From positions 128,001 through 163,358 of the IMG/VR virus record IMGVR_UViG_3300029957_000005: a stretch of 35,358 nt of DNA; one strand, written 5' to 3'. The notes under the pieces are model-generated. The model was not told the origin of the DNA. It saw only the letters and a program-made list of their open reading frames with translations, and made no database searches. The translations under genes and the position numbers were made by a program. This document shows positions 415-6,683 of the stretch, one piece after another (the first letter of the stretch is position 1; each line of letters begins with the position of its first letter). Source of the DNA: a virus (lineage: Duplodnaviria > Heunggongvirae > Uroviricota > Caudoviricetes).

Positions 415-501
415 TGGAGTACCGGGCGAGATTCGAACTCGCGGTGTCCTTTCGGAATCGGATTAAAAGTCCGACGTCGTCGACCGCTTGACTACCGGTA
501 C
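415..501 (-). tRNA. tRNA-Lys(UUU) with long variable arm, U73
   Basis: GTACCGG/CCGGTAC, loop CTTTTAA, variable arm TTCCGAAAGGACACC, CCA. Confidence 0.9.
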
Positions 502-504
502 ATG

Positions 505-873
505 TTACTTGGAGTGAGCCCTGCAGAAGGCGAGTGACTCACTCAAATTCGTGGAGATGATGTCCGTCTCCGTGAAGATCTTGTGCCTCAGTTCCCGGAC
601 TCCTTCCGGTTCATCGAAGGCAGTTCTGAAGTCGACCTGAGCCAGCTTTCCCAGTCTCGAGAGTCTTCCTTCGAGCTGAGCGATCTCAGCCCTGAGTTGG
701 AGCTCGATTGGATAGGAATGCAACTCGTCGAACTGAGACTGAACACCGAGAAGATTTTCGCGAAGGACTTGAGGGTCCACGCCTGGAACGTAGTCAACAT
801 GGACCTTCGTAGCTCCAATCAGCTTTCTGTATTCCTCGACTACGGCTTCGCAGTCCAATTCATTCTGAGTCAT
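505..873 (-). CDS. Hypothetical protein (start MTQNELD, 122 aa)
   Basis: ATG at 873 with GGAAGAAG upstream; the longer ORF start runs into a tRNA-like gene. Confidence 0.75.
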   Translation of the reverse strand: MTQNELDCEAVVEEYRKLIGATKVHVDYVPGVDPQVLRENLLGVQSQFDELHSYPIELQLRAEIAQLEGRLSRLGKLAQVDFRTAFDEPEGVRELRHKIFTETDIISTNLSESLAFCRAHSK

Positions 874-888
874 TTCACTTCTTCCATA

Positions 889-978
889 TGGCGCGCTCGG
901 AGGGAGTCGAACCCCCATTGATGCAATCTCCTCCGATTACGGTTACTGCGGGGTAGAAACCCGGACCGGTACGAGCGC
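889..978 (-). tRNA. Non-canonical D-armless tRNA-Arg(UCU)-like RNA
   Basis: Acceptor GCGCTCG/CGAGCGC, T-arm with TTCGACT, CCA, anticodon hairpin CGGG-TTTCTAC-CCCG, no D-arm, long 3' insert. Confidence 0.7.
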
Positions 979-985
979 TTGTCGA

Positions 986-1126
986 TTAGGACGCAGAACG
1001 AGCAATTGCCGAAATGTCAGCTCTTGCAATTCCGATGTCCGATAGTTCTCTGTTGGATAGGCTTGCAAGTTCGCTGACGGTGTGTCTGTAAACTTTCCAG
1101 GCCCTATACTTACGCATCAAATTCAT
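986..1126 (-). CDS. DUF1127 (YjiS-like) small Arg-rich protein, 46 aa
   Basis: Hand translation MNLMRKYRAWKVYRHTVSELASLSNRELSDIGIARADISAIARSAS fits the DUF1127 pattern W..YR.T..EL..LS.REL.DIGI.R.DI; AAGGAAG RBS; absent from ORF track. Confidence 0.9.
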   Translation of the reverse strand: MNLMRKYRAWKVYRHTVSELASLSNRELSDIGIARADISAIARSAS

Positions 1127-1191
1127 GTTTCTTCCTTTCGATTTGGTACTGTCTTATACTATACCAAAGAGGTAGAAATTAGAATTGATGA

Positions 1192-1396
1192 TTTGGAATA
1201 CCTAGTATTCCGAAATTCGATCGACTCCGTTTGCCGTTCCTTTCTTAGGGCCCGACTGCCTGTTTTCTAGAATGAACCAGATGACCACGGAGTCCGAGTA
1301 CGGTCACAATGCGTTGCGTGGCGCATTGTTTTCTGGTAGGTCACACCTTAAAGCCACCTAGCTGATGCATCTCCCGAGCTAGGTAGGACAGGTGGA
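1192..1396 (-). ncRNA. Multi-stem structured ncRNA candidate with possible pseudoknot
   Basis: ACCTAGCT/AGCTAGGT, ACCAGA/TCTGGT, ACAATGCG/CGCATTGT, GACTCCGT/ACGGAGTC, terminal GGAATA/TATTCC hairpin. Confidence 0.6.
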
Positions 1397-1398
1397 TA

Positions 1399-1484
1399 TG
1401 GAGGCGTGGGTGAGAATTGAACTCACTCTCATTGCTGAGACCTTGGCTTTGCAGGCCAGTTCGTTGCCGGTCCGACACCACGCC
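1399..1484 (-). tRNA. tRNA-Cys(GCA) with long variable arm
   Basis: GGCGTGG/CCACGCC, U73, loop CTGCAAA, variable hairpin TCTCA-GCAA-TGAGA. Confidence 0.9.
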
Positions 1485-1491
1485 TATAATT

Positions 1492-1581
1492 TGGAGTACC
1501 TGGAAGGATTCGAACCTTCGACGTCCTTACGGATCCGGATTAAGAGTCCGGCGCCTTCGACCAACTCGGCTACACAGGTAC
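1492..1581 (-). tRNA. tRNA-Lys(CUU) with long variable arm, U73
   Basis: GTACCTG/CAGGTAC, loop CTCTTAA, variable arm ATCCGTAAGGACGTC, 2 extra nt after acceptor 5' strand. Confidence 0.9.
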
Positions 1582-1600
1582 ATTTAGAGATTGATTGTCC

Positions 1601-1762
1601 TCAGAGCGTTTCGAGCTTCTTGTTCGGAAGGATCTTGCACCAGTTGAGGAGCGCACCACCTTCGACGAGAGCGCGAGACATCAGCATCTTTCCACGATAG
1701 ACTCCACCAACTTGAAGATGGGAGAAATTCCTGGAACGAACTTCTGAGGTAATCTTCAGCAT
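1601..1762 (-). CDS. Hypothetical early protein, 53 aa (MLKITSEVRSRN...)
   Basis: GGAGA RBS just downstream of an early promoter; hand translated; absent from ORF track. Confidence 0.65.
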   Translation of the reverse strand: MLKITSEVRSRNFSHLQVGGVYRGKMLMSRALVEGGALLNWCKILPNKKLETL

Positions 1763-1785
1763 ATCTATCTCCATTTGTTAGAAGC

Positions 1786-1813
1786 ATACTAACACATCAG
1801 GAGGAGATGTAAA
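1786..1813 (-). promoter_or_regulatory. T4-type early promoter
   Basis: TTTACA-N16-TAGTAT with TGTG upstream of -10; motif recurs five times in the window. Confidence 0.75.
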
Positions 1814-1822
1814 CTGAAAAAT

Positions 1823-1898
1823 TGGATCATCCACTAGGATTCGAACCTAGATTCTCCGACTTCAGAGGACGGCGTTCTACCAGTTAAACTACGGATGA
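1823..1898 (-). tRNA. tRNA-Gln(CUG)
   Basis: Cloverleaf, loop CTCTGAA, TTCGAAT, CCA. Confidence 0.93.
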
Positions 1899-1906
1899 AT
1901 ATGACC

Positions 1907-2401
1907 TTACTTCAGGTCTTTCGCCTTGACCCACTTGTCGTCGATGAAGACTTCAGAGAGGGACTCAGCTTGGTTTTCTGCCACGATCACGGACTCGTGG
2001 GGTCTTGGATTGGCCGAAACGTTCTTCGAAACGACCTTGACTTGAGACACAGTGCGAGAGATCCTGATGAAGGACCTATCGTCTGGATGGATCTTCCGAA
2101 ATTCAGCCAGCTGTCTGTTGTACTCTTCGTAGTACTTCTCGCGGTTCTCACCGTATGGACGGAAGGAGATGTCTGCTTCGAATTCGATGTAGTCCGGATT
2201 CTTATAGGAGACTTCGGCAAATCGATCCATCTGGACGACCTCGAGAACCTCTCTCCAGTAGGCCGATCCCTTGTTGGATCTCGAACCGGCAAAGCGGACT
2301 CGCATTCCTGGACGAAGGTTTTGAAGAACCCAGGTGGTTATCCGATCTTCACGATCTATGGTTCTCTGGGCCTGAGCCTGTGTTTCGTTATACCATGCCA
2401 T
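1907..2401 (-). CDS. Hypothetical protein, 164 aa
   Basis: TAAGGA RBS; fills inter-tRNA gap; phage-like codon use. Confidence 0.8.
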   Translation of the reverse strand: MAWYNETQAQAQRTIDREDRITTWVLQNLRPGMRVRFAGSRSNKGSAYWREVLEVVQMDRFAEVSYKNPDYIEFEADISFRPYGENREKYYEEYNRQLAEFRKIHPDDRSFIRISRTVSQVKVVSKNVSANPRPHESVIVAENQAESLSEVFIDDKWVKAKDLK

Positions 2402-2422
2402 TCTATGTTCCTTATTTCAAAT

Positions 2423-2494
2423 TGGTCCCTCTGCCGGGTAACGCTCCTGGAGAATCAGCCTTATGAGAGCCGTTCGACCACTTGATCCAGAGGG
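2423..2494 (-). tRNA. tRNA(CAU), Met or Ile2, atypical T-loop
   Basis: CCCTCTG/CAGAGGG, loop CTCATAA, T-loop AGCGTTA, CCA. Confidence 0.8.
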
Positions 2495-2500
2495 ATGTTT

Positions 2501-2574
2501 TGGTGCGGGTACAGAGACTCGAACTCTGGACTCCTGGTTGGAAGCCAGGCACGTTTCCTCTACGCCATACACGC
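2501..2574 (-). tRNA. tRNA-Gly(UCC), A73
   Basis: Loop CTTCCAA, T-loop TTCGAGT, CCA. Confidence 0.9.
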
Positions 2575-2581
2575 GTTGTTT

Positions 2582-2657
2582 TGGTGCGACTTCTTGGTTT
2601 CGATCCAAGCTCCCTGGTTTTTCAAACCAGCGCTTTCACCAGATTAGCTTAAGCCGC
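2582..2657 (-). tRNA. tRNA-Phe(GAA)
   Basis: Loop TTGAAAA, T-loop ATCGAAA, CCA. Confidence 0.9.
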
Positions 2658-2665
2658 ATGTTAGT

Positions 2666-2772
2666 ATTCGACCTCTTAGTCCTGCACGTCTCGGGAGAGA
2701 ATTTATCGGTTTTACCAGCAGTCCATGTTAAGTTAGTCCACGTTGTCCCGTTGCTCGTGGATTAGGTCGAAT
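2666..2772 (-). ncRNA. Structured ncRNA candidate
   Basis: 9-bp closing stem ATTCGACCT/AGGTCGAAT, hairpin TCCACG/CGTGGA, possible CGGGA/TCCCG long-range pairing. Confidence 0.55.
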
Positions 2773-2774
2773 TA

Positions 2775-2868
2775 TGGCGGAAGACGGAGAGCCCGAGTCC
2801 CATACGTGGTCTTAGCACGTACGCATCGCTTTCCAAGCGAGCCCAGCACCCTGTCTGGTTCATCTTCC
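2775..2868 (-). tRNA. tRNA-Ser(GGA), 8/4 fold
   Basis: 8-bp acceptor GGAAGATG/CGTCTTCC, 4-bp T-stem, long variable arm, G73. Confidence 0.85.
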
Positions 2869-2873
2869 ATATT

Positions 2874-2973
2874 TGGCGGACACTGTGAGGTTCTCACTCA
2901 CCATAGAGGTCGACAGCTTCTATCCATTAAGTTTCATCACGACCCGGACTGGGCAGGATGAAACTCCGTGTCC
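2874..2973 (-). ncRNA. Ser-like tRNA mimic with no canonical D or anticodon arm
   Basis: GGACAC/GTGTCC + GCCA, T-like arm TGAG-TGAGAAC-CTCA, long hairpin AGTTTCATC/GATGAAACT, variable-arm-like ATAGA/TCTAT. Confidence 0.7.
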
Positions 2974-2981
2974 ATATTCAA

Positions 2982-3070
2982 TGGCGGAAGGCAGAGGTCT
3001 CGATCCCCACACCCGTGAGGGTGCTCACTGCTTTCGAAGCAGGTCCAGAACCCCGTCTGGTTTACCTTCC
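2982..3070 (-). tRNA. tRNA-Ser(CGA), 8/4 fold
   Basis: GGAAGGTA/TGCCTTCC, loop TTCGAAA, long variable arm, G73. Confidence 0.87.
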
Positions 3071-3073
3071 AAT

Positions 3074-3166
3074 TGGCGGAAGACTGAGGTCACGCTCCCC
3101 ACACGTGGTACTAGCACGTGCCCACTGCTTTCAAGGCAGGTCCGATCCTCGACCGGTTAGTCTTCC
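3074..3166 (-). tRNA. tRNA-Ser(UGA), 8/4 fold
   Basis: GGAAGACT/AGTCTTCC, loop CTTGAAA, T-loop AGCGTGA, G73. Confidence 0.87.
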
Positions 3167-3172
3167 ATGTTT

Positions 3173-3249
3173 TGGTCCCGCCATCGGGATTTGAACCCGA
3201 GTCGCCTACCTTGAGAGGGTAGCATTCTTGACCACTAAACTACAGCGGG
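3173..3249 (-). tRNA. tRNA-Glu(CUC)
   Basis: Canonical cloverleaf, loop CTCTCAA. Confidence 0.93.
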
Positions 3250-3255
3250 TAATCT

Positions 3256-3332
3256 TGGTCCTCTTGAAAGGATTCGAACCTTCAACCTTGGCGTTAGGAG
3301 TGCCGAGCTCTGTCCGGTTGAGCTACAAGAGG
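3256..3332 (-). tRNA. tRNA-Arg(CCU)
   Basis: Canonical cloverleaf, loop CTCCTAA. Confidence 0.93.
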
Positions 3333-3337
3333 ATAAT

Positions 3338-3414
3338 TGGTCCGGCTGATGGGATTCGAACCCACATTGGACTCCTTGAAAGGGAGGCTTCCTAGGCCAT
3401 TAGAAGACAGCCGG
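3338..3414 (-). tRNA. tRNA-Glu(UUC)
   Basis: Canonical cloverleaf, loop CTTTCAA. Confidence 0.93.
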
Positions 3415-3422
3415 TTAATAAA

Positions 3423-3496
3423 GAGAGGCTCAGGAGTGTATGCCTGACTTACGCTGTCACCTCCGCTTGGTGACAGACCTAGGCTCCGAGGAGCAA
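3423..3496 (-). ncRNA. Small structured RNA candidate
   Basis: Hairpins CTGTCACC/GGTGACAG, TCAGG/CCTGA and GCTCC/GGAGC fill the spacer. Confidence 0.45.
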
Positions 3497-3498
3497 AT

Positions 3499-3573
3499 TG
3501 GCTGCAGAGGCTGGGTGTGAGCCAGCACCTCCGTCCCACAACGGGACGGCGCTCTCCATTAAGCTACTCCACA
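3499..3573 (-). tRNA. tRNA-like RNA, undetermined anticodon (7-bp stem, 5-nt loop GTTGT)
   Basis: Acceptor, D-arm and CCA present; anticodon arm CCGTCCC-GTTGT-GGGACGG; T-loop CTCACAC. Confidence 0.7.
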
Positions 3574-3574
3574 A

Positions 3575-3650
3575 TGGCGAGGATGACGGTATTCGAAACC
3601 GCAACTATTCCGCAGACAACGGAGCACCCTTCCCAGAGGGTCCCATCCCC
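3575..3650 (-). tRNA. tRNA-Asp(GUC), U37
   Basis: GGGGATG/CATCCTC, G73, loop TTGTCTG. Confidence 0.85.
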
Positions 3651-3652
3651 AT

Positions 3653-3803
3653 TAAGCTCTGTTCAAACCTCTCTCTTCGAGATACCGGATGGAGGGTGAG
3701 GACCTACATCTTTCCCCTCCCTCACGAAGAGCGGCAGCCATATTGGACCGCAGCCACATTGGACCGTAGCCGTCTTGAAGAGAAGAAGTTAGAACAGAGC
3801 TTA
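3653..3803 (-). ncRNA. Promoter-proximal long-stem ncRNA with internal 16-nt repeats
   Basis: Ends pair over about 30 bp (TAAGCTCTGTTC/GAACAGAGCTTA and beyond); begins 7 nt after an early -10 box. Confidence 0.7.
3734..3771. repeat. 16-bp tandem repeat x2.4 (GCAGCCAYATTGGACC)
   Basis: gcagccatattggacc gcagccacattggacc gtagcc. Confidence 0.85.
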
Positions 3804-3810
3804 CTGTGTT

Positions 3811-3839
3811 AGTCTATCATGCTTGTGAAGGCATGTAAA
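3811..3839 (-). promoter_or_regulatory. T4-type early promoter
   Basis: TTTACA-N17-TAGACT with TGn extension. Confidence 0.75.
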
Positions 3840-3842
3840 CTG

Positions 3843-3873
3843 AAAAAGTGGAGAAATGACCATGTTTCTCCGC
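3843..3873 (-). terminator. Intrinsic terminator
   Basis: GCGGAGAAA/TTTCTCCAC stem followed by TTTTT. Confidence 0.75.
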
Positions 3874-3889
3874 GAAGCAATTAAGAGCT

Positions 3890-3966
3890 TAACCTTTTGC
3901 AGACCGACAGACTTTCGTCTGACCTTATGTTTATCCACCGTGGGTCTATAGCGCAATCACGGTGCG
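3890..3966 (-). ncRNA. Pseudoknot-type RNA candidate
   Basis: CACCGTG/CACGGTG stem whose loop AGACC can pair with downstream GGTCT; inserted CAGAC-GAAA-GTCTG hairpin. Confidence 0.45.
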
Positions 3967-3974
3967 TTGGAATA

Positions 3975-4066
3975 TGGTGGGCCCCGGGACGTATCGCACG
4001 CCTTGCCGCATAGGGACCTGGTTTACAGCCAGGCAACCGGACTTCCGATTCTTACTTGCGGGGCCC
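3975..4066 (-). tRNA. tRNA-Tyr(GUA), atypical (8-bp acceptor, enlarged D region)
   Basis: GGGCCCCG/CGGGGCCC, loop CTGTAAA, T-loop TGCGATA, A73. Confidence 0.8.
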
Positions 4067-4072
4067 ATATGA

Positions 4073-4180
4073 AGGATTTTGCATTCTGCACGAATGAGAG
4101 TCGAACTCAATCGTTCCGGGACTTACACCCGTCTGCATCCTACTGGGAGAACCCATCTCCCTGCCCTTGTCGGGCATCTC
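4073..4180 (-). ncRNA. Structured RNA with two T-loop-like hairpins
   Basis: CGGG-TGTAAGT-CCCG and TGAG-TTCGACT-CTCA inside AGGAT/ATCCT, plus TGCCC/GGGCA and GGGAGA/TCTCCC; no CCA. Confidence 0.6.
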
Positions 4181-4185
4181 TGATT

Positions 4186-4261
4186 TGGCACGGGAAGCCA
4201 GATTCGAACTGACTCTAAACGTTTTGGAGACGTTTGTGCTAGGCCATTACACCATACCCGT
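4186..4261 (-). tRNA. tRNA-Trp(CCA)
   Basis: Canonical, loop CTCCAAA, G73. Confidence 0.93.
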
Positions 4262-4265
4262 ATGT

Positions 4266-4502
4266 TCACTTCACGAAGTGAGGCTGACCTTCCTTGGCCT
4301 TCCACTTCAATCCCTTCCAACCAGACGGGATGTAGTGAGAGATGCCAAAGGCATCGAAGAGACGATGACCACCTGACTTGGAGACGTTGAGCCAGAGAGG
4401 CTCCTCGATCCTGATAGTTTCGCCTACGAACTTGTATTCGCGCCATTCCTCCGAAGAGATATCCACGAATTCCAATCCCGACTTATTGTTGAAGTCTGAC
4501 AT
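4266..4502 (-). CDS. Hypothetical protein (start MSDFNNK, 78 aa)
   Basis: AAAGGA RBS before ATG at 4502; fills inter-tRNA gap. Confidence 0.8.
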   Translation of the reverse strand: MSDFNNKSGLEFVDISSEEWREYKFVGETIRIEEPLWLNVSKSGGHRLFDAFGISHYIPSGWKGLKWKAKEGQPHFVK

Positions 4503-4528
4503 GATTGAATTTCCTTTCTCTGTCAAAT

Positions 4529-4604
4529 TGGTACCAGTACTAGGTTACGCTCCTAGCTATACACGGTTATCGGCCGCGCCTCGTCACTAGCTGAGTCTAC
4601 TGGC
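4529..4604 (-). tRNA. tRNA-Ile(GAU), A18/G55 type, C33
   Basis: Loop CCGATAA, D-loop AG, T-loop AGCGTAA. Confidence 0.87.
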
Positions 4605-4610
4605 ATATTA

Positions 4611-4686
4611 TGGTGCTCTATCCAGGTATCGCGCCTGGTGCCTCCTGGATGTCGACCAGGCGTCTTTACTAACTGACCCATAGAGC
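4611..4686 (-). tRNA. tRNA-Val(GAC), A18/G55 type, C33
   Basis: Loop TCGACAT, T-loop CGCGATA. Confidence 0.87.
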
Positions 4687-4692
4687 ATTAAT

Positions 4693-4767
4693 TGGAACTA
4701 GAGGAGAGGCTCGAACTCTCAATTCCGGGGACACAACCCAGCCGGTTACCATTACCGTCACTCTAGC
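4693..4767 (-). tRNA. tRNA-His(GUG), no G-1, G1-U72, U37
   Basis: GCTAGAG/CTCTAGT, loop TTGTGTC, position -1 is T. Confidence 0.85.
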
Positions 4768-4777
4768 ATGTTCGTTT

Positions 4778-4869
4778 TGGTACGCGATCTGGGTTTCGAT
4801 CCCAGTCAAGAACGGTCATCTACCGCTAAAGGCTTTATAAGGGCCTCTCATGTCCCAACATCATCGCGT
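4778..4869 (-). tRNA. tRNA-Ile(UAU) with long variable arm
   Basis: ACGCGAT/ATCGCGT, loop CTTATAA, variable hairpin AGCGGT-AGATG-ACCGTT. Confidence 0.8.
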
Positions 4870-4877
4870 ATTCTAAT

Positions 4878-4954
4878 TGGTAGGCCTAGAGGGAGTTGAA
4901 CCCACAACCACTACGTTCTAAGCGTAGCCGCTTTGCCAATTTGCGTATAAGCCC
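4878..4954 (-). tRNA. tRNA-Leu(UAG), short variable loop
   Basis: Loop CTTAGAA, 5-nt variable loop, A73. Confidence 0.9.
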
Positions 4955-4960
4955 ATATTT

Positions 4961-5037
4961 TGGTGCTCTGAGAGGGAGTCGAACCCTCACTGTACGGCAT
5001 CTCAGTCCGCTTCCTCTACCAATTGGGATATCAGAGC
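4961..5037 (-). tRNA. tRNA-Leu(GAG), short variable loop
   Basis: Loop CTGAGAT, 5-nt variable loop, A73. Confidence 0.88.
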
Positions 5038-5045
5038 AATTCGTT

Positions 5046-5121
5046 TGGAGCCCACATCGGGTAACGCTCCCGCTTCACCGGTTTACAGGACCGGACCTCA
5101 TCTAATAAAGGCGTTGTGGGC
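5046..5121 (-). tRNA. tRNA-Thr(UGU), A18/G55 type, C33
   Basis: Loop CCTGTAA, T-loop AGCGTTA. Confidence 0.83.
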
Positions 5122-5128
5122 AGATAGG

Positions 5129-5182
5129 AAGGAGAGGCTCCGTCTTGATCACCGATCAGACCACCGAGTAGTTCCTCTCCTT
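5129..5182 (-). ncRNA. Irregular hairpin RNA candidate
   Basis: AAGGAGAGG/CCTCTCCTT closing stem with inner GTCT-GATC/GATC-AGAC. Confidence 0.4.
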
Positions 5183-5185
5183 GAT

Positions 5186-5260
5186 TGGAGCTTCCTGTCA
5201 GTAACGCTCTGACTTCTCACCCTTACGAAAGGCGCACATCGCTTTTAATGCTTAGGAAGC
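5186..5260 (-). tRNA. tRNA-Thr(CGU), A18/G55 type
   Basis: Loop TTCGTAA, T-loop AGCGTTA. Confidence 0.85.
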
Positions 5261-5267
5261 ATGAATT

Positions 5268-5330
5268 GATCGAGGCCTTGCACCTCGCCAGCCGTAGCAT
5301 TGTTAGAGACCTATGACGCGGCTCAGGTCT
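5268..5330 (-). ncRNA. H-type pseudoknot followed by a T-loop hairpin
   Basis: AGACCTG/TAGGTCT, loop AGCCG pairs with downstream CGGCT, then CGAGG-TGCAAGG-CCTCG. Confidence 0.55.
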
Positions 5331-5332
5331 TT

Positions 5333-5408
5333 TGGTTGCGGGGGCTGGGTTTGAACCAGCGTCTCCGGCTTATGAGGCCAGCAAGGAACCGGGCTCCTCT
5401 ACCCCGCA
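5333..5408 (-). tRNA. tRNA-Met(CAU), initiator-like
   Basis: TGCGGGG/CCCCGCA, A11-U24, loop CTCATAA; lacks the full three G-C anticodon-stem pairs. Confidence 0.88.
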
Positions 5409-5421
5409 ATATTCCGGTTGT

Positions 5422-5477
5422 TGGTATCAGGGCGAATCACCTCATGAAAGCGATTCCGTCGGCCGACTGACCCTGAG
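5422..5477 (-). ncRNA. 56-nt CCA-ended, T-armless mini-tRNA-like RNA with CAU loop
   Basis: TCAGGG/CCCTGA + TACCA; GAATCGCT-TTCATGA-GGTGATTC hairpin. Confidence 0.55.
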
Positions 5478-5479
5478 AA

Positions 5480-5554
5480 TGGTGGCCCCTCTCCCTTGCA
5501 AGGAAAGATCCTCTCCCTCAACGGGAGCGCTTTGTGCCTTTAAGCTAAAGGGCC
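5480..5554 (-). tRNA. tRNA-like RNA, undetermined anticodon (5-nt loop GTTGA)
   Basis: GGCCCTT/AGGGGCC + ACCA, D-arm, CTCCC-GTTGA-GGGAG, T-loop CTTGCAA. Confidence 0.7.
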
Positions 5555-5559
5555 AAACT

Positions 5560-5633
5560 TGGTGCTCTCAATAGGTTACGCTCCTATCTCTGCTCCTTAC
5601 CAAAGAGCTATTCTACTAATGAAATATGAGAGC
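5560..5633 (-). tRNA. tRNA-Thr(GGU), A18/G55 type
   Basis: Loop TTGGTAA, T-loop AGCGTAA. Confidence 0.87.
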
Positions 5634-5638
5634 AAATA

Positions 5639-5713
5639 TGGTACTTCCTGAGAATTCCGAGATCTCGACCTTCGGTATGTAACACCGCTGCTCTGCCTCT
5701 GAGCTAAGGAAGT
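5639..5713 (-). tRNA. tRNA-Val(UAC)
   Basis: Loop GTTACAT, atypical T-loop CTCGGAA, A73. Confidence 0.85.
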
Positions 5714-5725
5714 ATGAATTCTTCT

Positions 5726-5799
5726 CGACGAACCTGCAAGGAATCGAACCCTGTGTTTCCCTCTGCACGAGAGCGTCCTATCCACTAGACGAAGGTTCT
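5726..5799 (-). tRNA. tRNA-like RNA or pseudo-tRNA (5-nt loop GTGCA, no encoded CCA)
   Basis: D-arm GTCT/GGAC, T-arm with TTCGATT, acceptor GAACCT/AGGTTC. Confidence 0.6.
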
Positions 5800-5800
5800 C

Positions 5801-5906
5801 AGACAAAGACCGATCCGGCAAGACCGGCATAATCGTCTGCGAGTCAACAAGGCCCGAGTGGATTGCCGTCCAACCTTCCTTGTTCGAAGAGGGTAACAAT
5901 CTCTTC
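5801..5906 (-). ncRNA. Three-hairpin structured spacer
   Basis: GAAGAG/CTCTTC, AACAAGG/CCTTGTT, AGAC..CCGG/CCGG..GTCT. Confidence 0.4.
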
Positions 5907-5910
5907 TTAA

Positions 5911-5987
5911 TGGTGCCTAAGGAGGTATTCGAAACCTCATACACCTCTTTTTGAGGGAGGCCGCTTTGCCTCTTTGCGTACTCAGGC
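5911..5987 (-). tRNA. tRNA-Leu(CAA), short variable loop
   Basis: Loop CTCAAAA, 5-nt variable loop, A73. Confidence 0.9.
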
Positions 5988-5992
5988 TTATT

Positions 5993-6067
5993 TGGTGGAG
6001 AAGGTGGGTAACGCTCCCACTAGGCTGGAATCTTGCAAGGATTCCCCGGGTATCTCACCCCATCCCC
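5993..6067 (-). tRNA. tRNA-Ala(UGC), reduced D-arm
   Basis: G3-U70, loop CTTGCAA, T-loop AGCGTTA. Confidence 0.83.
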
Positions 6068-6078
6068 AATTCTTGAAT

Positions 6079-6142
6079 TGGTGCCACCGATAGCCGAAGA
6101 GACAACAATGATTACCGCTCGGTGGCAACACGGGTCATTGTA
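6079..6142 (-). ncRNA. CCA-ended pseudoknotted small RNA
   Basis: GCCACCGA/TCGGTGGC + ACCA; 5' ACAATGA complementary to loop TCATTGT. Confidence 0.6.
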
Positions 6143-6144
6143 TT

Positions 6145-6218
6145 TGGAGCGGATAGTGGGGATCAAACCCACCTCAACGGCTTGGAAGGCCGAGGCACAG
6201 TCACTATACCATATCCGC
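6145..6218 (-). tRNA. tRNA-Gly(UCC), second copy, U73
   Basis: GCGGATA/TATCCGC, loop CTTCCAA, A19/U56 swap. Confidence 0.9.
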
Positions 6219-6224
6219 AGTAAT

Positions 6225-6314
6225 TGGCTCCTATCGCAGGTACCGCCCCTGCCCCACCTTTCGATGGCCTTCCGGTTAACAGCCGGAGACTTTCACTATG
6301 CCAGTCCGATAGGA
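6225..6314 (-). tRNA. tRNA-Asn(GUU) with long variable arm
   Basis: TCCTATC/GATAGGA, G73, loop CTGTTAA, variable hairpin CCATC-GAAA-GGTGG, T-loop GGCGGTA. Confidence 0.85.
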
Positions 6315-6317
6315 ATA

Positions 6318-6606
6318 TTGCTCTTTCGAGCAAAACGACTAAACCGATATTTGGTCAGAATGGCCTCGGTTAAAGGGCAGCAGAAAATTCGATGGGTCCA
6401 CGTTTTGAAAGGACCGGACCCTTTACGCTTGGAGTTAAGTGGGTAAGTCCACCTCCAGAACGACTCGTATACCTTCTTTGGAGTCCGACTCTTACTGCCG
6501 GATACCTGTAAAGGACAATCTTCAATTGTCTAAGAACCCGAGCTTTCTTAGGCTCGTACCTTCCGGAGAAGGATTTCTGACCGAGCCCAGTTGGTCTCAA
6601 GGTCGT
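6318..6606 (-). ncRNA. About 290-nt highly structured ncRNA, unknown family
   Basis: Ten or more stems incl. ACGAC/GTCGT, GGTCAGAA/TTCTGACC, CCTTTAC/GTAAAGG, GGGTCC/GGACCC; no credible ORF; bounded by tRNAs. Confidence 0.65.
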
Positions 6607-6608
6607 AT

Positions 6609-6683
6609 TGGTCAGGATGGTTGGTAACGCTCCAACTTTGCGGACTTCCAAGGTCCACCGATGATCTTATCTCTTACACCCTG
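6609..6683 (-). tRNA. tRNA-Pro(UGG), A18/G55 type, A37
   Basis: CAGGGTG/CATCCTG, loop CTTGGAA, T-loop AGCGTTA. Confidence 0.85.

Follow-up and report, generated by a model that had tools for sequence, protein, structure and literature searches.

Recurrent phage tRNA families with long-armed Lys, Cys, Asn and Ile tRNAs and armless Leu tRNAs, and their possible role in escape from host nucleases

The stretch of phage DNA analysed here (the window: 35,358 nucleotides (nt), bases 128001-163358 of the 163,358-bp IMG/VR virus record IMGVR_UViG_3300029957_000005, whose completeness is estimated at 93%) begins with one end of a very large transfer RNA (tRNA) array (the first 6.8 kb, minus strand), in which five genes for Lys, Cys, Asn and Ile carry long, paired variable arms and all three Leu genes lack an arm. 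The long-armed class of tRNAs has been described as comprising only Leu, Ser and Tyr, with selenocysteine (Sec) (PMC7609411). The armed and armless structures found here are real, not chance folds, because the designs recur elsewhere with compensatory changes, and each design is a separate, recurrent phage tRNA family. Genes were detected with ARAGORN, the Rfam tRNA model and a custom scan whose template combined acceptor (7 bp) and T (5 bp) stems with a discriminator base and an encoded CCA; variable regions were taken from our own cloverleaf parse and from unconstrained RNAfold predictions. With default settings ARAGORN called 23 tRNA genes in the part of the array lying in the window, and the custom scan yielded about 39.

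The tRNA-Lys(UUU) gene (positions 415-501, minus strand; 87 nt, CCA encoded) was recovered by ARAGORN, by Rfam (59.1 bits) and by RNAfold, and has a 3-bp D stem, U73 and a 15-nt variable region, U-UCC-GAAA-GGA-CACC. Supported by the same three methods (Rfam, 51.2 bits), tRNA-Lys(CUU) (1492-1581, minus; 90 nt, CCA encoded) likewise has U73 and a variable region of 15 nt, A-UCC-GUAA-GGA-CGUC; the connector between its acceptor and D stems is an odd 4-nt UGUA, the corresponding segment being 2-3 nt long in 23 relatives. tRNA-Cys(GCA) (1399-1484, minus; 86 nt, CCA encoded; ARAGORN, Rfam 46.5 bits, RNAfold) has U73 and a 16-nt variable region with the hairpin UCUCA-GCAA-UGAGA. The Rfam scores of the two Lys genes and the Cys gene clear the threshold comfortably. 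tRNA-Asn(GUU) (6225-6314, minus; 90 nt), which ARAGORN reported at a relaxed threshold only and which the custom scan and RNAfold supported, has a U1-A72 pair, G73, a non-canonical T loop (GGCGGUA) and an 18-nt variable region with the hairpin CCAUC-GAAA-GGUGG. The fifth gene, tRNA-Ile(UAU) (4778-4869, minus; 92 nt), was called neither by ARAGORN at default settings nor by the Rfam tRNA model and emerged from the custom scan (7-bp acceptor stem, T arm, CCA) and RNAfold. Its acceptor and T stems are perfect, it has A73 and CCA, and its 24-nt variable region, AGCGG-UAGAUGA-CCGUU, forms a second anticodon-type hairpin with GAU at loop positions 3-5; this arm differs from the Lys-type mini-arm, and the D arm is atypical.

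For all five armed genes, the cloverleaf parse and unconstrained RNAfold gave a five-arm fold, and the acceptor and T stems located by the custom scan (7 and 5 bp) are free of mismatches. Both Lys genes and the Cys and Asn genes have a type II core, in which a long D loop and a 3-bp D stem go with an arm exceeding 10 nt. Across the whole 163-kb record ARAGORN found no other Lys or Asn gene, and its sole further Cys call was a weak, 70-nt candidate at 5729-5798. An earlier, sequence-only reading of the window had reported paired variable arms on these five genes and U73 in both Lys genes; the parse upheld both observations, and RNAfold agreed on the arms.

The three Leu genes are tRNA-Leu(UAG) (4878-4954, minus; 77 nt, CCA encoded; ARAGORN, Rfam 57.3 bits), with variable loop UGGUU and the Leu-type D arm CGC-AAAUUGGCAAA-GCG; tRNA-Leu(GAG) (4961-5037, minus; 77 nt, CCA encoded; ARAGORN, Rfam 51.5 bits), with variable loop ACAGU and D loop CAAUUGGUAGA; and tRNA-Leu(CAA) (5911-5987, minus; 77 nt, CCA encoded; ARAGORN, Rfam 47.3 bits), with variable loop UGUAU. 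All three carry A73, and ARAGORN and the parse agreed with the earlier statement that each has a 5-nt variable loop. ARAGORN found no Leu gene beyond these three in the whole record. Armless relatives were found among isolates in Felixounavirus coliphages and Bixzunavirus mycobacteriophages, where they are annotated merely as tRNA-Leu.

The recurrence of the Lys design was examined with a pattern made up of a canonical CU-NUU-AA anticodon loop, a 3-bp variable stem, a GNRA loop, a CRYC linker and a T arm. This pattern, which both window genes fit, matched 28 IMG/VR contigs and 14 of 185,579 bacterial species genomes, in most of the latter within dense alphaproteobacterial tRNA arrays. Mesorhizobium phage Cp1R7A-A1 and Rhodobacter phage RcXuper have two armed Lys genes each, annotated as plain tRNA-Lys. 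Among 24 distinct sequences (the window pair and 22 others), all three pairs of the arm covary, with pair tallies of GC10/UA9/CG4 and GC13/CG7/AU2 and with two-sided changes at the three pairs in 13, 10 and 2 sequences. Judged from these alignments, the added hairpin appears to be kept by selection. Single 85-nt armed Lys(UUU) genes with A73 were also seen outside arrays in four loci (L054, L055, L058 and L062) from metagenome-assembled genomes of Actinomycetota and Frankiales; the phage design may exist here as chromosomal copies, and the genomes concerned encode a class II lysyl-tRNA synthetase (LysRS).

The other designs recur as well. The long-armed Cys pattern, in which U73 was preset, matched 50 IMG/VR contigs with 38 distinct sequences whose arms covary, and ARAGORN calls a tRNA-Cys of 82-92 nt on all 50; a BLAST search of the window Cys gene against isolate phages had returned nothing useful, and the family emerged by the pattern scan. 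Seven homologues were found of the two-arm Ile(UAU) design: the arm stem covaries, and the loop displays GAU in 5/7 and GAC in 2/7. Asn arms were compared by eye, as their unequal lengths defeated MAFFT and RNAalifold; the variants CCAUC/GGUGG, CCAUC/GAUGG, CCCC/GGGG and GGC/GCC are nearly all GNRA-capped.

To place these genes among related arrays, a census was taken with ARAGORN of 19 phage records, each picked for an armed Lys gene and scanned over its tRNA regions. Long-armed and short genes numbered 26 and 15 for Lys, 18 and 29 for Leu, 5 and 11 for Asn, 4 and 26 for Thr, 4 and 26 for Met, 2 and 14 for Cys, and 2 and 19 for Ile; Asp and Glu had one armed gene apiece, and long arms were present on 11/11 Tyr and 14/15 Ser genes. 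Leu variable regions are graded in length, from 14-17 nt through mini-arms of 10-13 nt (typically GCUUCGGCGU) to loops of 4-8 nt, so that a stepwise decay of the Leu arm is seen alongside a kept Lys arm in the same arrays. In one phage (G010, locus L040) the Lys and Thr genes share a near-identical module of D arm and variable arm, and in another (G021, locus L047) such a module, with GGC-GAAA-GCC arms, is shared by Thr, Asn and Ile(GAU), which suggests that the module may move between tRNA genes within a phage.

The sequence-only reading had described the window as a swap of the two tRNA classes. That description holds insofar as the Leu genes are armless and the Lys, Cys, Asn and Ile genes armed, but the swap is one-sided, because Ser and Tyr keep long arms, and the traits belong to independent families. 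The three window Ser genes, tRNA-Ser(GGA) (2775-2868), tRNA-Ser(CGA) (2982-3070) and tRNA-Ser(UGA) (3074-3166), all on the minus strand, served as comparators and retain G73 and arms of 17 to 22 nt. The tRNA-Tyr(GUA)-like gene (3975-4066, minus; 92 nt) also retains a long arm; its acceptor stem has 8 bp, and its D arm is replaced by a hairpin of 6 bp. A coupled swap was rejected on three counts: Felixounavirus has armless Leu with ordinary Lys, RcXuper combines armed Lys with armed Leu only, and the armed-Cys contigs hold mostly plain Lys and armed Leu. Several of the separate families are combined in the window, in Cp1R7A-A1 and in several alphaproteobacterial arrays.

Searches of the 93%-complete record gave no match to class IIb (Lys/Asn/Asp) or class Ia (Ile/Leu/Val) synthetases, nor to the CysRS family or the Ser/Thr/Pro/His synthetase family. 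Given that none of these four families was matched in the phage, host enzymes most likely charge these tRNAs, and with the cognate amino acids. In the census, G73 was found in 16/16 Asn(GUU) genes, U73 in 15/16 Cys(GCA) genes and A73 in 47/47 Leu genes. The window Leu genes retain A14, A15-U48, G18G19, A20a and A73, which is the identity set of Escherichia coli LeuRS, an enzyme that requires neither the variable arm nor the anticodon (PMC9976931); SerRS reads the long arm together with G73, and E. coli LeuRS needs A73 (PMC7609411, PMC9976931). Lys is the exception with regard to identity, U73 being present in 18/26 armed versus 3/15 plain genes (p = 0.003). Copying of U73 from the host was rejected, since host tRNA-Lys in two bacterial genomes carrying such arrays is 75-76 nt long and has A73. 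U73 as a general anti-determinant against LeuRS or TyrRS proved a weak candidate, in that armed Thr, Met, Ile and Glu genes retain A73. Nor does the armed Lys design need a host with class I LysRS, an enzyme that would leave the variable side free: alphaproteobacterial carriers have class I only (5/5), and Actinomycetota and Verrucomicrobia carriers class II only (5/5).

Codon usage was checked in the CCA-adding enzyme that the phage encodes (L053:1303-2655). On alignment with 25 bacterial homologues, Leu codons fell on conserved Leu columns in 12/15 cases, and the family offered too few conserved Lys columns for the same check. The phage also encodes an Rnl1-type RNA ligase, which aligns with T4 Rnl1 (PDB 2C5U) across the catalytic Lys (K99 of T4 Rnl1); this residue has an ordinary Lys codon.

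The phage host is most likely an alphaproteobacterium, because of a two-piece tmRNA, the nearest tRNA matches and the homologues of the CCA-adding enzyme. The closest tRNA matches are to phages of Mesorhizobium, Rhodobacter, Sinorhizobium, Ochrobactrum and Caulobacter, and the named homologues of the CCA-adding enzyme lie mostly in the Paracoccus-Roseobacter group. ARAGORN located the permuted transfer-messenger RNA (tmRNA), of the alphaproteobacterial type and with the tag peptide ANDNVSYEGVALAA, upstream of the window (G000:C1:125406-125794, minus).

The array holds further unusual genes. In about eleven tRNAs on the minus strand (window positions 2423-6683), the T loop reads AGCGUUA or AGCGUAA and not UUCGAAU; these include Pro, Ala, Thr (three copies), Ile(GAU), a Met-like gene and Ser(UGA), and the Val T loop reads CGCGAUA. 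Such T loops are a second sort of core remodelling in the same array. Among the Ser genes lies a 100-nt Ser-like RNA (2874-2973, minus) with acceptor strand GGACACG, G73 and CCA, whose D and anticodon arms give way to a single helix of 8 to 10 bp, leaving no recognisable anticodon arm. A 90-nt tRNA-like gene (889-978, minus) has a perfect acceptor stem, a T arm, G73 and CCA, and its D and anticodon arms are unclear; a stretch of Sinorhizobium phage Phosso matches it at 95.6% identity and a stretch of Ochrobactrum phage vB_OspM_OC at 88%.

The interpretation that we favour, with a probability of roughly 45%, is that these genes encode working decoding tRNAs, charged by the host with the cognate amino acid, whose bodies have been rebuilt and whose hairpins on Lys, Asn and Cys shield them from nucleases. 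On this account the Lys, Asn and Cys tRNAs have acquired a type II core, with its 3-bp D stem and long D loop, together with a short hairpin capped by a GNRA loop; they keep their anticodon loop and, save for U73 in Lys, the cognate discriminator. The hairpin occupies the hinge that joins the D loop to the 3′ strand of the anticodon stem, a surface proposed to be read by the nuclease AriB. There it may sterically block such tRNases, and the phage would thereby retain a supply of isoacceptors that the host destroys.

AriB, of the PARIS defence system, cuts Lys(UUU), Thr(UGU), Asn(GUU) and Thr(CGU) tRNAs between positions 40 and 41, and in the authors' model a second monomer reads D-loop nucleotides 16 and 17 (PMC12409363). 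Since the variable region lies between these two sites, an added hairpin and a rebuilt D arm should disturb docking. Long-armed Lys, Thr and Asn tRNAs recur in these phages and coincide with the list of AriB targets (PMC12409363). Where both Lys shapes occur in one record, the armed gene is UUU and a plain one CUU in 11/11 cases (Fisher p = 8e-4). The AriB site of host tRNA-Lys(UUU) reads UAAUC|A in two carrier genomes; the phage Lys family has C41, the same change as in T5 Mut2, with U39 unchanged. The phage's own genome also encodes, about 1 kb apart, the Rnl1-type RNA ligase (L052:3149-4411, minus) and a PNKP phosphatase-domain protein (L052:5363-5821, minus), which together look like a tRNA repair kit; an RNA ligase with a PNKP-type phosphatase is the kit that T4 uses against PrrC. 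Escape of the armed tRNAs from nucleases, which the sequence-only reading had inferred, is plausible on this circumstantial support.

Several points weigh against this interpretation. Cys, Ile, Met, Asp and Glu tRNAs can be armed too, and we know of no phage-defence nuclease shown to target these. The anticodon and discriminator statistics of the census come from related phages chosen for armed Lys and are not independent samples. U73 on Lys carries a cost, because A73 is a determinant for LysRS and other bases reduce charging in E. coli (PMC9976931), and E. coli LeuRS failed to charge the type I tRNA-Leu of Streptomyces coelicolor, the single natural bacterial example so far assayed (PMC6614811). 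Finally, the PARIS-resistant tRNAs of T5, which became resistant through point changes (PMC11464382), are short-armed, at 75-78 nt, and were rejected as a long-armed precedent. They resemble the window genes in being phage copies of isoacceptors that a defence tRNase destroys, and share C41 through Mut2, but they are short-loop tRNAs altered at positions 39, 41 and 16; in the window Lys genes, known here from sequence alone, the core is rebuilt with an extra hairpin and U39 is kept.

The Ile and Leu genes call for separate accounts. The arm of tRNA-Ile(UAU) most likely has a job of its own as a GAU anticodon mimic, because the hairpin resembles a second anticodon arm showing GAU; its display of GAU would more likely aid acceptance of a UAU tRNA by IleRS. 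Mycoplasma mobile has a TilS-independent tRNA-Ile with the same UAU anticodon for AUA, for which the solution reportedly lies in the synthetase; the phage gene differs in adding the second, GAU-showing hairpin. Deletion of the Leu arm would be tolerated, since the elements by which proteobacterial LeuRS recognises its tRNA are A73, A15-U48 and the D loop and do not include the arm. Its loss may be neutral, through relaxed constraint, or may aid in evading a factor that reads the arm, in the way that vertebrate SLFN11 touches the arm of the type II tRNAs it cleaves (PMC12215978).

The alternative that survives best, possible if on the whole improbable, is tolerated drift combined with shuffling of modules. 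Indels in the variable region would be near-neutral, because recognition by LysRS, AsnRS and CysRS depends mainly on position 73 and the anticodon and the arm goes unread by LeuRS, and recombination within arrays would spread the module of D arm and variable arm with no role in defence. The presence of one module on different isoacceptors of a single genome (G010 and G021) fits this, as do the graded lengths of the Leu arms, the independent spread of the traits (plain Lys and armed Leu prevailing on the armed-Cys contigs) and the occurrence of armed Lys in hosts with either class of LysRS. A neutral insertion of 10 nt should, however, erode, like the Leu arm of these very arrays, yet the 3-bp stem, GNRA loop and CRYC linker of Lys persist among phages whose acceptor stems differ considerably, each pair showing compensatory changes, and the arm is biased towards the UUU isoacceptor.

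We are doubtful of a broader version of the nuclease-escape account, in which the whole array would be a deliberately reshaped set, with hairpins on the attacked isoacceptors, Leu disarmed against an SLFN11-like, arm-reading nuclease and a dozen more elbows rewired; in that version Leu would be the only long-armed tRNA whose synthetase can do without the arm. We know of no bacterial counterpart of SLFN11.

The arms might, alternatively, be handles for a partner other than a nuclease, such as a host synthetase, a modification enzyme, or the phage CCA-adding enzyme or repair ligase marking the phage's own tRNAs. The anticodon-type hairpin of Ile(UAU), whose loop keeps GAU while its stem covaries, would suit such a role, and the Lys, Asn and Cys arms favour GNRA loops, which often make contacts, Leu mini-arms using UUCG; a CCA-adding enzyme and an RNA ligase are both encoded by the phage. 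These partners are candidates only, the arm sequence outside the GNRA loop varies freely, and the families span phages of very different gene content (contigs of 6 to 500 kb), and we regard this possibility as decidedly unlikely. Less likely still, in our judgement, is a function as decoys, the long-armed RNAs titrating host tRNases or toxins instead of, or besides, decoding. The authors of the AriB study suggest that some overexpressed viral tRNAs may inhibit AriB (PMC12409363), and the Lys family keeps a host-like U36-A-A-U-C stretch beside C41, but the anticodon loops, acceptor stems, discriminators and CCA ends are canonical and conserved, and decoding is favoured because these are the array's only Lys and Asn genes and, bar the weak 70-nt call, its only Cys gene.

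Mischarging, whereby SerRS, LeuRS or TyrRS would charge the armed tRNAs, so that Lys, Asn and Cys codons would be read partly as Ser, Leu or Tyr, and some other enzyme the short Leu tRNAs, may be set aside as highly improbable: a long arm is the main SerRS signal (PMC7373986, PMC7609411), the Asn gene has G73 and a 5-bp arm, and allo-tRNAs are natural Ser-charged tRNAs with other anticodons (PMC5389517), but the Lys arms have 3 bp against at least 6 bp in the Ser tRNAs of this phage, U73 is the right discriminator for neither SerRS nor LeuRS, the acceptor/T layout is 7/5 and not the 8/4 or 9/3 of allo-tRNAs, all Leu genes keep the LeuRS identity set, and both the Leu codons of the CCA-adding enzyme and the codon for the catalytic Lys of the ligase are used normally. 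The sequence-only reading had ranked mischarging by SerRS or LeuRS as the less likely option, and the 3-bp Lys arms, U73 and the ligase Lys codon bear this out.

Compared with canonical type II tRNAs (Leu, Ser, Tyr and Sec), the armed tRNAs share the 3-bp D stem, the long D loop and a paired arm of at least 13 nt. They differ in their anticodons (UUU, CUU, GCA, GUU and UAU, none of them for Leu, Ser or Tyr), in Lys arms that, at 3 bp, are shorter than the Ser arms of the same phage, and in discriminators that follow the amino acid of the anticodon or are U73. Allo-tRNAs and selC* tRNA-Cys (Mukai et al. 2017, PMC5389517; PMC7609411) also place long arms on anticodons other than Leu, Ser and Tyr, one class being Cys, but have 8/4 or 9/3 stems and Ser- or Sec-like identity, unlike the 7/5 stems and cognate discriminators of the window genes. 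For the armless genes, the nearest parallels are the type I tRNA-Leu(CAA) of S. coelicolor (Fan et al. 2019, PMC6614811) and animal mitochondrial tRNA-Leu, which likewise combine a Leu anticodon with a 4- to 5-nt loop. In the S. coelicolor tRNA A73 is not an identity element (PMC6614811), whereas the phage genes have retained A73 together with a Leu D loop of the E. coli type, and the hosts of phages with type I Leu genes range from E. coli to Mycobacterium. In the literature searched, we found no description of long-armed Lys, Asn or Cys or of armless Leu phage tRNAs, and the S. coelicolor case was the only published bacterial type I tRNA-Leu; these phage tRNA families thus seem to be undescribed. 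Gene finders overlook some of their members, Ile(UAU) wholly and Asn save at a relaxed threshold.

Phage genes such as these repeatedly depart from the long-arm rule, some by having an arm and others by lacking one. Provided that they are charged correctly, they amount to natural experiments that probe the tolerance of LysRS (of either class), AsnRS, CysRS and LeuRS for a switch of tRNA class. Their designs also offer ready scaffolds for orthogonal tRNAs. Should the whole array prove to be a reshaped set, bacterial immunity would read tRNA shape, and phages would reply with a parallel set that the host still charges. If the arms block nucleases, they would represent a new form of counter-defence, working by shape instead of point mutation, and would explain in part why large phages carry near-complete sets of tRNAs.

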